From NCBI RefSeq assembly GCF_056712565.1, contig NZ_CM160072.1: a DNA stretch of 64,000 bases; one strand, 5' to 3'. A model generated the notes under the pieces. It made no database searches, had not been told where the DNA came from, and saw only the letters and a list, made by a program, of their open reading frames with translations. The stretch's first letter is position 1. Each line of letters begins with the position of its first letter. Position numbers and translations under genes: made by a program. This document shows, in pieces, positions 11,364 to 14,520 of the stretch.

Positions 11364-13769
11364 ATGTCCTTAAAAGGTCTTCGCTTTACGCTGGAGGTTG
11401 ACGGCCAGGAGCCGGACACCTTTGCAGTGGTGAGCTTCCGGTTAATCCAGAACCAGTCTTATCCGTTTGTGATGAGTGTGGATGTCGCCAGCGATTCTTT
11501 TATGCAGACGGCGGAGATGCTGCTGGAGAAGAACGCAACGCTGACTATCTGGCAGGGTGTCATCCCGCTGCGTTATGTCACAGGCGTGGTGGCAGGGTTT
11601 GGTATGCAGGAGAACAACGGCTGGCAGATGCGTTATCACCTGCGTATTGAGCCGCCGTTATGGCGGTGCGGGCTGCGGCGGAACTTCCGTATCTTCCAGC
11701 AGCAGGATATCCGGACGATATCGGCCACATTACTGAACGAGAACGGCGTCACGGAGTGGACGCCGCTGTTTTATGAGGACCATCCGGCGCGGGAATTCTG
11801 TGTCCAGTACGGGGAAAGCGACCTGGCGTTTCTGGCGCGGCTGTGGGCGGAGGAGGGGATTTTCTTCTTTGAGCGGTTTGCGGCGGACAGTCCGGAGCAG
11901 AAGCTGACGCTGTGCGACGATGTGGCGGGGCTGTCACAGGCGGGGGAGCTTCCGTTTAACCCGGACACATCGGCAGGAGCGGAGACGGAGTGTGTCAGTA
12001 TGTTCCGTTATGAGGCGCATGTCCGCCCGTCATCGGTGCAGAGCCAGGATTACACGTTTAAGGTGCCGGACTGGCCGGGGATGTATGAGCAGCAGGGTGA
12101 GAGCCTGAACGGACAGCTTGAACAGTATGAAATATTTGATTATCCGGGAAGGTACAAGGATGAACAGCACGGCAAGGATTTCACGCTGTACCGGATGGAG
12201 AGCCTGCGCAGTGATGCGGAAAAGGCCACAGGGCAGAGTAATTCGCCGAAGCTGTGGCCGGGGACGTGGTTTACGCTGACGGGGCATCCGCAGAAGATGC
12301 TGAACCGTGAATGGCAGGTGGTACAGAGCATTCTGTCAGGAGACCAGCCGCAGGCGCTTCACGGCAGCCAGGGGAGAGGAACCACGCTGGGAAATCAGTT
12401 AGAGGTGATACCGGCGGACCGGACGTGGCGTCCACGGCTGCAAAGCAAACCGAAGGTGGACGGGCCACAGAGCGCCATTGTCACCGGGCCTGCGGGAGAG
12501 GAAATCTTCTGTGATGAACATGGCCGGGTACGGGTGAAGTTTCACTGGGACCGTTATCACGGGATGACGGAGGAGAGTTCGTGCTGGGTGCGTGTGTCGC
12601 AGGCGTGGGCGGGGCCGGGATTTGGTAATCTGGCGATACCGCGGGTGGGCCAGGAGGTGATTGTTGATTTTCTGAACGGGGACCCGGACCAGCCGCTGGT
12701 CATGGGCCGGACGTACCATGAGGACAACCGTTCGCCGGGGGACCTGCCGGGAACGAAGACGCAGATGACGATACGGTCGAAGACCTATAAAGGAAGCGGT
12801 TTTAATGAGTTGCGCTTTGAGGATGCGACGGATAAGGAACAGGTCTATATCCACGCGCAGAAGAACATGGACACGGAGGTACTTAACGACCGGACGACGG
12901 ATGTGAAACATGACCATACGGAGACCATCGGGAACGACCAGAAGATAACGGTGGTGAAGGGGCAGACGGTTCAGGTCGGGACCAGAAAAGAAGGGGGCCA
13001 CGACCAGAGTATCACGGTGGCGAACGACCGGTGCATCACGGTACGTAATGACCAGACGCTGCAGGTGACGAATGACCGGACGGTGAGCGTGAGTAATGAT
13101 GACGGCCTGTACGTCAGAAATGACCGTAAAGTGACGGTGGAAGGGAAGCAGGAGCATAAGACGACGGGGAACCATGTCAGCCTGGTGGAGGGAAAGCACA
13201 GCCTGGTGGTGAAGGGGGACCTGGCGAGGAAGGTGAGTGGCGCGCTGGGGATAAAGGTCGACGGGGATATCGTGCTGGAGAGCAGCAGCCGGATAAGCCT
13301 GAAGGTGGGTGGCTCGTTTGTGGTCATCCATTCAGGGGGCGTGGACATCGTCGGGCCGAAAATCAGTCTCAATAGCGGCGGTAGTCCGGGGACGCCGGTG
13401 CCGGCGCTGCAACCGACGGTGCTGAAGACACTGGGGGATGAGAAGAGTGGTGATGGCAGTGATTCCGGAGAAGAAAATGAAGACTCTGGAGGGAACTGCG
13501 TGACCGGAAGTGGTGGTGATGATCGAGGTGACGATGAGGATGAACCTGAAAAATATACTCTCCAGTTCCATTTTACAGACGATGACGGGATACCGTATTC
13601 AGAAACCCGCTACATTGCCTTCTTTGAGGATGGCACGCAGACCCACGGAGAAACGGATGAAGAGGGGTATACAGAGCGTTTTTTTGTATCTAGCAAACAT
13701 GAAATTAAAGTGAAGTTGCTATTTGCGAATGATGATTTTCTCTCAATGGAAGGACACTATGGACGATAA
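11364..13769 (+). CDS. vgrG: VgrG type VI secretion tip/spike protein with an acidic linker and a C-terminal extension
   Basis: 801-aa ORF with a VgrG-type N-terminus (MSLKGLRFTLEVDG), gp27/gp5-like regions, beta-helix repeats (VTVxNDxT...), then a Gly/Asp/Glu-rich linker and a beta-rich tail. Confidence 0.9.
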   Translation: MSLKGLRFTLEVDGQEPDTFAVVSFRLIQNQSYPFVMSVDVASDSFMQTAEMLLEKNATLTIWQGVIPLRYVTGVVAGFGMQENNGWQMRYHLRIEPPLWRCGLRRNFRIFQQQDIRTISATLLNENGVTEWTPLFYEDHPAREFCVQYGESDLAFLARLWAEEGIFFFERFAADSPEQKLTLCDDVAGLSQAGELPFNPDTSAGAETECVSMFRYEAHVRPSSVQSQDYTFKVPDWPGMYEQQGESLNGQLEQYEIFDYPGRYKDEQHGKDFTLYRMESLRSDAEKATGQSNSPKLWPGTWFTLTGHPQKMLNREWQVVQSILSGDQPQALHGSQGRGTTLGNQLEVIPADRTWRPRLQSKPKVDGPQSAIVTGPAGEEIFCDEHGRVRVKFHWDRYHGMTEESSCWVRVSQAWAGPGFGNLAIPRVGQEVIVDFLNGDPDQPLVMGRTYHEDNRSPGDLPGTKTQMTIRSKTYKGSGFNELRFEDATDKEQVYIHAQKNMDTEVLNDRTTDVKHDHTETIGNDQKITVVKGQTVQVGTRKEGGHDQSITVANDRCITVRNDQTLQVTNDRTVSVSNDDGLYVRNDRKVTVEGKQEHKTTGNHVSLVEGKHSLVVKGDLARKVSGALGIKVDGDIVLESSSRISLKVGGSFVVIHSGGVDIVGPKISLNSGGSPGTPVPALQPTVLKTLGDEKSGDGSDSGEENEDSGGNCVTGSGGDDRGDDEDEPEKYTLQFHFTDDDGIPYSETRYIAFFEDGTQTHGETDEEGYTERFFVSSKHEIKVKLLFANDDFLSMEGHYGR

Positions 13770-14520
13770 TAATCAAACTTCTGGACAACCAAAGCCAGAG
13801 CCAGAAGAATGTGTGAAAGAGCAAAAAATAACAGATCATTTTAAAATAATGATTGATAAGGCTCGTAAGGCACAAAAGTTGGTTTTGATAAAAAGAGCAG
13901 ATGATCTTTTGAGATGGGGAGCACAGGAGGAATATGATTTCAGTAAGATCTTTGGTGTTAAAGGAAATAAGGAGGTTAATATAAGAAAATATGGACATAA
14001 TACAGGTAGGCGCATGAATGCTAGATTTCTTATGATGGATGGTGTGAGAAGATTAATGATTATAGCTAATGATTTAACAATGAGCAGTTTTATAAATTAT
14101 ACAGGTTGTAATGAATTTGCAGCATTCGTCAGCCCAAGTAAGGATATGCCCTATATAATTAACATAGGCGCAAAATTTGAGTATAGAGATGGCAAAAAAA
14201 ATCCAGTAACGGGAAAGGATTCTCATGTTGCTACTTTATGTCATGAAATGTCTCATATTCAGTGGTATTATGGGGATAATAAAAAAGGTGGTATGTGGTC
14301 ACAGGATTATACAACTACTGATAAATATTCAACGTGCAAAGAGGATGAAGTTTCATATGACGAACATATCCGTATTGCAACTAAACTGATCTCTAAACAA
14401 AAAGATCAAATATTTGAGAATGCATATAACATAGAAAGATATTTTGAAATAAGATTAATTGAAAGTGAGATAGACTCGATTGATGATGAAATATTAAGCA
14501 ATTCAGTTAAGAAAAAATAG
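13759..14520 (+). CDS. Candidate type VI secretion effector: HExxH (zinc-metallopeptidase-like) toxin
   Basis: ATG at 13759 overlaps the vgrG stop (ATGGACGATAA) with GGAAGGA upstream; about 253 aa containing CHEMSH; markedly AT-rich by eye; no signal peptide. Confidence 0.55.
   Translation: MDDNNQTSGQPKPEPEECVKEQKITDHFKIMIDKARKAQKLVLIKRADDLLRWGAQEEYDFSKIFGVKGNKEVNIRKYGHNTGRRMNARFLMMDGVRRLMIIANDLTMSSFINYTGCNEFAAFVSPSKDMPYIINIGAKFEYRDGKKNPVTGKDSHVATLCHEMSHIQWYYGDNKKGGMWSQDYTTTDKYSTCKEDEVSYDEHIRIATKLISKQKDQIFENAYNIERYFEIRLIESEIDSIDDEILSNSVKKK

Follow-up and report, generated by a model that had tools for sequence, protein, structure and literature searches.

Among the closest described counterparts of the gene analysed here are toxins attributed to a type VI secretion system (T6SS) in E. 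coli and P. aeruginosa. The gene encodes a 253-residue protein with one HExxH motif, and it lies at the 3' end of a vgrG gene in a stretch of 64,000 nucleotides (NCBI RefSeq assembly GCF_056712565.1, contig NZ_CM160072.1), which as a whole we call the window. We consider it very likely that the protein is a VgrG-loaded T6SS cargo effector, a periplasm-acting peptidase of the aspzincin kind, that is paired with a cognate immunity protein.

The nearest described locus is that of BCE049, a B2 mastitis strain, in which 'effector locus 1' (effector module 5) includes an 'M35 peptidase' (PMC7904677, 2021). This protein inhibited the growth of E. coli when it was provided with a PelB leader, and did not do so in the cytoplasm, without the leader (PMC7904677). 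According to the genome record, the BCE049 locus is the same island between yncG and yddH that is present in the window, and over 253 residues its M35 peptidase and the window protein do not differ (100% identity). The two loci differ in three respects. BCE049 carries a longer effector allele of 263 amino acids (aa), with seven A residues (A7) in a run near the effector end, it has a second module with VgrG, DUF2169 and PAAR-like genes upstream, and its immunity open reading frame (ORF) is in two pieces. The initial annotation of the window, made from the sequence alone, had proposed the gene as a candidate T6SS effector; the periplasm-only toxicity established by others for the identical protein bears this out.

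A second study examined the E. coli PAR genes AKO63_2953 to AKO63_2956, with M35PAR (AKO63_2955) as effector and AKO63_2956 as its immunity gene (PMC10673891, 2023). Expression from pET22b showed M35PAR to be toxic; the downstream gene neutralised it, and a C-terminal VgrG fragment co-precipitated with the protein (PMC10673891). It is 30% identical to the window protein (E 1e-33) and 99% identical to P0024 of our homologue set, and has the same HExxH…D…NAYNIERYF signature. The primers given in that paper map exactly onto the PAR T6SS-1 cluster, at the frameshifted vgrG, the start of the effector and the end of the VgrG fragment. The PAR and window loci are alike in that the effector overlaps the end of vgrG, a homologous immunity gene follows, and the same transthyretin (TTR)-like domain ends the VgrG. 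They differ in that the PAR genes belong to a T6SS-1 main cluster with a frameshifted VgrG of the DUF2345 type, whereas the window VgrG has no DUF2345. Toxicity, neutralisation and binding to a VgrG fragment have thus been demonstrated for a 30%-identical paralogue.

The third system is the C-terminal domain of P. aeruginosa VgrG2b, a gluzincin with Glu983 as a zinc ligand, which belongs to DUF4157 and has a thermolysin-like fold (PMC6899460). Like the window effector it is an HExxH metallopeptidase assigned to the T6SS; its toxicity is confined to the periplasm, and a small downstream periplasmic protein, PA0261, neutralises it (PMC6899460). It differs in belonging to another zincin clan and in being fused to VgrG rather than free. 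In addition, 'M35_like' is listed in a catalogue of PAAR-associated toxins. A full-text literature search found no paper that pairs 'aspzincin' with 'type VI secretion', the wording in the literature being 'M35' or 'M35_like'. The effector is therefore already known: RefSeq annotates it, tests of the identical protein are published, and a paralogue is described as one half of an effector-immunity pair.

The effector gene and its proposed ribosome-binding site are as follows.

13759-14520, + strand: effector gene, 253 aa; predicted zinc metallopeptidase of the aspzincin (M35-like) kind, with neither signal peptide nor propeptide.
13748-13754, + strand: GGAAGGA, Shine-Dalgarno-like, inside the end of vgrG and 4 nucleotides (nt) 5' of the effector ATG; all related loci have a GGAGG-like equivalent before the effector ATG.

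The translated ORF has one HExxH, namely HEMSH at residues 162-166 (nt 14242-14256), within ATLCHEMSHIQWYYGD. From residue frequencies, we estimate that about 1% of proteins of this size would have an HExxH by chance. We regard HEMSH as meaningful because 19 aligned homologues all have H162, E163, H166 and D183 and because zinc peptidases match the fold. The effector start codon, an ATG, occupies 13759-13761 and the vgrG TAA 13767-13769, which gives an overlap of 11 nt within ATGGACGATAA. The GC content of the effector is 32.4% (25% at third codon positions) against 56.7% (69%) for vgrG, and across the 64 kb only 2.2% of 762-nt segments are equally AT-rich. The ORF as listed by program begins at 13723 with a TTG, and there are in-frame upstream ATGs at 13729 and 13732. 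Position 13759 is the best start because the RefSeq protein WP_000342574.1 begins there and the same overlap arrangement recurs in related loci. The initial annotation had described the single HExxH, the AT-richness relative to vgrG, the ATG overlapping the vgrG stop behind GGAAGGA, and 13759 as the preferred start, all of which stood up to calculation; the upstream start at 13723, which it had called an ATG, had to be corrected.

The initial annotation had not recognised the sequence as any named toxin family. RefSeq in fact already names it, as 'M35 family metalloendopeptidase' or 'peptidase M35' (WP_000342574/WP_000342575). Searches with the single sequence gave hints that were all below threshold: Aspzincin_M35 (E 0.0047) and Peptidase_M91 (E 0.02) in Pfam, and the Aeromonas salmonicida exotoxin AsaP1 (E 1.2) among PDB sequences. 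NCBIfam had no family for the effector. We collected 30 homologues, and those with a named source all came from Enterobacterales (E. coli, Salmonella, Buttiauxella, Franconibacter and Rahnella). The four residues named above are invariant in the alignment down to 33% identity. The predicted active-site elements are as follows.

14242-14256, + strand: HEMSH codons; H162 and H166 are predicted zinc ligands and E163 the predicted catalytic base.
14305-14307, + strand: D183 codon, predicted third zinc ligand; invariant, within GGMxxxD.
14419-14445, + strand: NAYNIERYF, residues 221-229, counterpart of the aspzincin C-terminal NADN(F/H)EY(Y/F) helix.

HEMSH aligned with the HExxH of AsaP1, of the peptidyl-Lys metalloendopeptidase GfMEP and of canonical aspzincin toxin domains. 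D183 fell on the zinc-binding Asp in GGTxD, part of the aspzincin motif GTxDxxYG (hhalign probability 99.9%, E 1.8e-32), which makes it the candidate for the acidic third ligand that the initial annotation had thought possible downstream of the HExxH. In GfMEP the zinc ligands are His117, His121 and Asp130 (PMC3268031). That GfMEP Asp154, in the NAD motif, forms the lysine-specificity pocket was considered, but the same paper has this residue hydrogen-bonding the ligand His117, and no claim about specificity is drawn from its replacement by Tyr in the effector. In the NAYNIERYF segment 8 of the 9 residues are invariant and I225 is nearly so; hhalign placed it on the canonical NADNFEYY, for which the AsaP1 equivalent is NADNHEYF.

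Structure prediction and a fold search had been proposed as a check for a zincin-like fold. An AlphaFold (AF2) model built on the homologue alignment had a predicted local distance difference test score (pLDDT) of 89.8 and a predicted template modelling score (pTM) of 0.87. When this model was compared with the PDB by Foldseek, the only significant matches were aspzincins, namely GfMEP (1g12, 1ge6) and AsaP1 (2x3a), each with a probability of 1.0. Structural matches to true peptidases had Z scores of 14-18. A profile of the family, searched against PDB sequences, retrieved AsaP1 at E 1.8e-6. The aspzincin-like fold and the invariant ligands are direct results of these computations.

An exhaustive profile search of 1.84 billion representative proteins yielded 257 relatives, only 25 of them close (E <= 1e-30). 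The remote relatives are canonical PF14521 domains, with 21 of 24 sampled sequences matching PF14521 at E <= 0.001, and they carry HEMSHF…GGTxDxxYG…NADNFEYY. Among P0094-P0211, the canonical Aspzincin_M35 toxin domain was fused C-terminally to PAAR in six of the 24 sampled, to VgrG in one (P0139, 909 aa) and to Hcp in one, and all three kinds of T6SS carrier therefore use the aspzincin fold. On the strength of the fold match, the alignment to canonical domains and the links through intermediate relatives, we assign the effector to the aspzincins: it is a predicted zinc metalloendopeptidase of that fold (MEROPS M35-like) and belongs to a divergent branch. Unlike GfMEP, AsaP1 and deuterolysin (MEROPS M35, PF14521/PF02102), it lacks a signal peptide and a propeptide, and its proposed route of delivery is the T6SS and not general secretion.

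Upstream of the effector, the following two features were compared between loci.

11364-13769, + strand: vgrG, 801 aa, of the T6SS-2-like type (TIGR03361, E 9e-181).
13560-13730, + strand: C-terminal TTR-like domain of VgrG, about residues 733-790, with the motif F.F.DD.G.PY..YIA..DG...G.TD..G.T; proposed docking site of the effector.

The comparison covered 11 vgrG-effector modules, those of the window and of nine other loci, one of which has two modules. In 11 of 11 the effector lies directly 3' of vgrG and PAAR. The effector start overlaps the end of vgrG by 8, 11 or 14 nt in 10 of the 11 junctions, with a GGAGG-like string before it, and a single base separates the two genes in the remaining one. 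Conservation of this overlap across the family supports the coupling to vgrG that the initial annotation had proposed, and translation of the effector is probably coupled to that of vgrG. A scan for promoters and terminators over 10400-16300 was uninformative: 19 promoter-like sites were found where 12.7 ± 3.4 were expected, and the 4 terminator-like sites (4.9 expected) were not tellingly placed.

Pfam called Phage_GPD, Phage_base_V and Gp5_trimer_C in the window VgrG and nothing after about residue 680; DUF2345 was absent. Two types of VgrG occur among the 11 modules, a T6SS-2-like type with Gp5_trimer_C and without DUF2345, to which the window VgrG belongs, and a T6SS-1-like type with DUF2345. 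The cores of the two types share roughly 10-40% identity per 50-residue block. A C-terminal domain of about 60 aa is nevertheless common to both of these unrelated cores, and this is the TTR-like domain. In the PAR study effector binding was attributed to DUF2345 (PMC10673891). The 'separate DUF2345 gene' of PAR is the 3' part of a frameshifted vgrG (a RefSeq pseudogene; L017, 30120-32637), and the C-terminal VgrG fragment also contains the TTR-like domain, so the binding observed for PAR may be due to that domain. Since the window VgrG has no DUF2345 and the TTR-like domain is the only element it shares with the PAR VgrG, the TTR-like domain appears the likelier effector adaptor. A structural precedent is the binding of Tle1 to the C-terminal TTR domain of VgrG1 in enteroaggregative E. 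coli (EAEC; PDB 6SJL), which was found as a match to the TTR-like domain and serves as the model for the proposed docking. The EAEC cargo is a phospholipase, whereas the window effector is a predicted protease.

The window VgrG is 92-100% identical over residues 1-650 to a VgrG whose gene neighbours hcp and tssBC elsewhere in E. coli (L002). Beyond residue 650 the identity to the same cluster-encoded VgrG falls to 64-66%, and the drop in GC content begins there. Because identity and GC both fall after this point, the adaptor domain, the effector and the immunity gene together have the appearance of an exchangeable cassette. At the same site in BCE049 (L009, 37158-42180), the extra upstream module consists of PAAR, a 654-aa VgrG, a DUF2169 adaptor, a PAAR-like protein and an ISAs1 fragment. 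This extra VgrG is 94-100% identical to the window VgrG over about 500 residues and then diverges, which illustrates the swapping of cassettes behind a conserved VgrG core.

The third part of the module lies downstream of the effector. The putative immunity gene and the homopolymers of this region are as follows.

14573-15292, + strand: putative periplasmic immunity gene, 239 aa; residues 1-26 resemble a Sec signal and end in STA.
14512-14517, + strand: A6 homopolymer at the effector end; A7 in the sister alleles (BCE049, L020-L027).
14580-14587, 14800-14807, 14859-14866, 15267-15279 and ~15315: A/T runs of the immunity region, from comparison of strains.

The N-terminus of the downstream product reads MLQAIKKIIIMTIVNIIFFYSFQSTA|DE, where the bar marks the end of the signal-like stretch. 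Neither Pfam nor NCBIfam had a family for this protein, the match to DUF4352 being below threshold (E 0.021). It is homologous, at about 29-42% identity (E 1e-18 to 1e-64), to the product of the ORF downstream of every related effector. Across the 11 modules these downstream ORFs form a single homologous family, with about 25-49% identity between loci, and most of the products have hydrophobic, signal-peptide-like N-termini. VgrG with its terminal domain, the effector and the downstream gene are thus inherited together, and the downstream gene probably encodes the cognate periplasmic immunity protein.

The effector and the putative immunity gene both vary in length between strains. A7 alleles of the effector have 10 more codons, giving 263 aa ending in …KKKIAELEKALLH, compared with 253 aa for the A6 allele of the window, and more distant homologues also read on past the residue-253 end. 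The 253-aa and 263-aa alleles are each present on at least 1000 contigs. The intact immunity allele is 273 aa long (P0031, L021, L027) and aligns to the C-terminal end of its homologues. Relative to this allele the window version, found on 904 contigs, is short of about 34 residues at the C-terminus. In a comparison of 10 strains the immunity ORF measures 273, 261, 239, 106 or 87 aa, and the gene differs between strains almost only at homopolymers, in at least five A/T runs of 7-8 nt. This variation may reflect decay, slippage-driven switching or, in part, errors of assembly or sequencing.

The genes that flank the module complete an orphan island, inserted between yncG and yddH (window 10520-16223), with the order PAAR, vgrG, effector, 239-aa ORF and ISAs1 remnant. 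Its outer genes are as follows.

11061-11345, + strand: PAAR gene, 94 aa, first gene of the island; RefSeq 'type VI secretion system PAAR protein' (WP_001127493.1), with PF05488 in sister loci.
15467-15610, + strand: remnant of an ISAs1-family (H-repeat) transposase at the end of the island, from the S88 RefSeq annotation mapped onto the window.

RefSeq annotation mapped onto the window placed no adaptor gene in the island. The region is 100% identical to the chromosomes of E. coli S88, APEC O1, ATCC 11775 and other extraintestinal pathogenic E. coli (ExPEC) or B2 strains. A match was found in 653 of 5426 complete E. coli genomes, and at query coverage of at least 80% in 508 (~10%), mostly ExPEC/B2. 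At the same yncG-yddH site, K-12 (1526247-1533851) has a degenerate RhsE (rhsE', ydcD, yncI) and an ISAs1-type ydcC. Orphan T6SS toxin cassettes appear to have landed at this site repeatedly. With the S88 RefSeq annotation mapped onto the window, yncG is frameshifted (9920-10520), and between mnaT and pqqU only a 168-nt fragment of a GntR-family gene is left (4392-4559); both are minor traces of gene decay near the island. Other patches below 38% GC, at ~45500-46000, 52750-53300 and 55950-57600, are unrelated to the effector island and correspond to the gad upstream region, the 5' end of yddA and the ydeN-ydeO region of the standard E. coli chromosome.

Several observations weigh against a functional, T6SS-delivered aspzincin. 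The aspzincin signature is incomplete, with the YG of GTxDxxYG absent from the effector family, eight residues inserted between the HExxH and the ligand Asp, and an invariant Tyr at the position of GfMEP Asp154, a residue that hydrogen-bonds the zinc ligand His117 (PMC3268031). No T6SS core able to fire the effector lies within the 64-kb window. Deletion of the whole BCE049 locus left virulence in mice unchanged (PMC7904677), a result that has no bearing on bacterial competition. Finally, the module may be impaired in the window lineage, because homopolymer frameshifts shorten the effector by 10 codons and the immunity gene by about 34.

This last point leads to the alternative that the module is a decaying or silent remnant in the lineage of the window, which we think unlikely and which would be compatible with the effector assignment. 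The A7-to-A6 slip, an immunity gene without its conserved C-terminal residues and the five homopolymer tracts behind the range of immunity ORF lengths all speak for decay, as do the flanking ISAs1 remnant and frameshifted yncG and the location at the site of the degenerate K-12 RhsE. On the other side, the entire catalytic domain and all invariant residues are intact, the lost tail of the effector is judged to lie outside the catalytic core because more distant members of the family stop directly after NAYNIERYFEI, and sequencing error may account for part of the homopolymer differences seen in long-read assemblies. Moreover, the wide distribution of the shortened alleles, on at least 1000 contigs for the 253-aa effector and on 904 for the 239-aa immunity gene, and their unaltered presence in S88, APEC O1 and ATCC 11775 argue for retention.

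A T6SS effector used against other bacteria also has to be set against one that acts mainly as an anti-host protease, in the way of AsaP1, an aspzincin exotoxin. In favour of this, AsaP1 ranks with the nearest matches of known structure, ExPEC B2 strains commonly have the gene, and UTI89_C1677, which is the effector gene, was a hit in transposon sequencing (Tn-seq) for intracellular growth in bladder cells (log2 fold change -6.42, false discovery rate (FDR) 0.09; PMC11495030). However, the Tn-seq hit is unvalidated, with a weak FDR and a possible polar effect, and the BCE049 locus deletion was not attenuated in mice (PMC7904677). Every locus has a homologous downstream partner, in most cases with a signal peptide, as is characteristic of antibacterial toxins of the periplasm, and the growth of E. 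coli is inhibited when the protein is sent to its periplasm (PMC7904677). We consider a mainly anti-host role improbable.

The equation of M35PAR with the PA0262 toxin domain in PMC10673891 implies membership of the family of the VgrG2b C-terminal domain (DUF4157, gluzincin). Both are HExxH T6SS toxins that act in the periplasm and have a small immunity ORF next to them (PMC6899460). The third ligand of the window effector is, however, an Asp that aligns to the aspzincin Asp. Fold and ligand type both differ, no VgrG2b match appeared in the Foldseek, profile or structural searches, and membership, which we judge very improbable, was rejected. That the effector instead serves to bind zinc after secretion, as a zincophore of the kind of Candida Pra1, which has the same fold, is less probable still: T6SS-secreted metal scavengers are known, but the catalytic Glu of the HExxH is invariant, the matches to true peptidases are much stronger, and periplasmic toxicity together with a cognate immunity protein does not fit a scavenger.

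For the favoured antibacterial effector, the following sequence of events can be proposed. Translation of the effector would re-initiate at the end of vgrG, and therefore spike and cargo would be made in roughly matched amounts. The effector would then dock on the TTR-like C-terminus of the same VgrG, in the manner of Tle1 on EAEC VgrG1; co-variation of the parts, the 6SJL match and the co-immunoprecipitation of the paralogue point to this arrangement. A T6SS-2-type machine whose genes lie at another place in the genome would fire the spike, as suggested by the similarity of the VgrG and by the phylogeny in PMC7904677. Once in the periplasm of a neighbouring Gram-negative cell, the effector would act there and growth would stop. 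H162, H166 and D183 are predicted to hold the zinc ion and E163 to act as general base, and an envelope protein or peptide bond would be cleaved; catalysis is the probable cause of toxicity. In the periplasm of the producer, the downstream product, which looks Sec-exported, would block the enzyme, neutralisation having been demonstrated for the paralogue only.

The effector itself adds little that is new, as it is an annotated and partly characterised T6SS toxin found in about 10% of complete E. coli genomes. Its branch, restricted to Enterobacterales, has a remodelled active-site shell. We give a low probability to the further reading that its periplasmic target and cleavage specificity are unlike those of known T6SS toxins (for example one essential envelope protein rather than peptidoglycan), that the TTR-like domain, and not DUF2345, is the loading adaptor throughout the branch, and that a second role in host cells exists, as hinted by the UTI89 Tn-seq result. 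Because the enzyme is small, is well modelled and has immunity alleles that are naturally intact or truncated, it would be convenient for finding the targets of T6SS metallopeptidase toxins. A TTR-like domain acting as an effector-specific adaptor in place of DUF2345 would refine a published conclusion (PMC10673891). Truncation at homopolymers, which affects the toxin gene as well as the immunity gene, may reveal how orphan effector islands undergo decay or switching in lineages of ExPEC.

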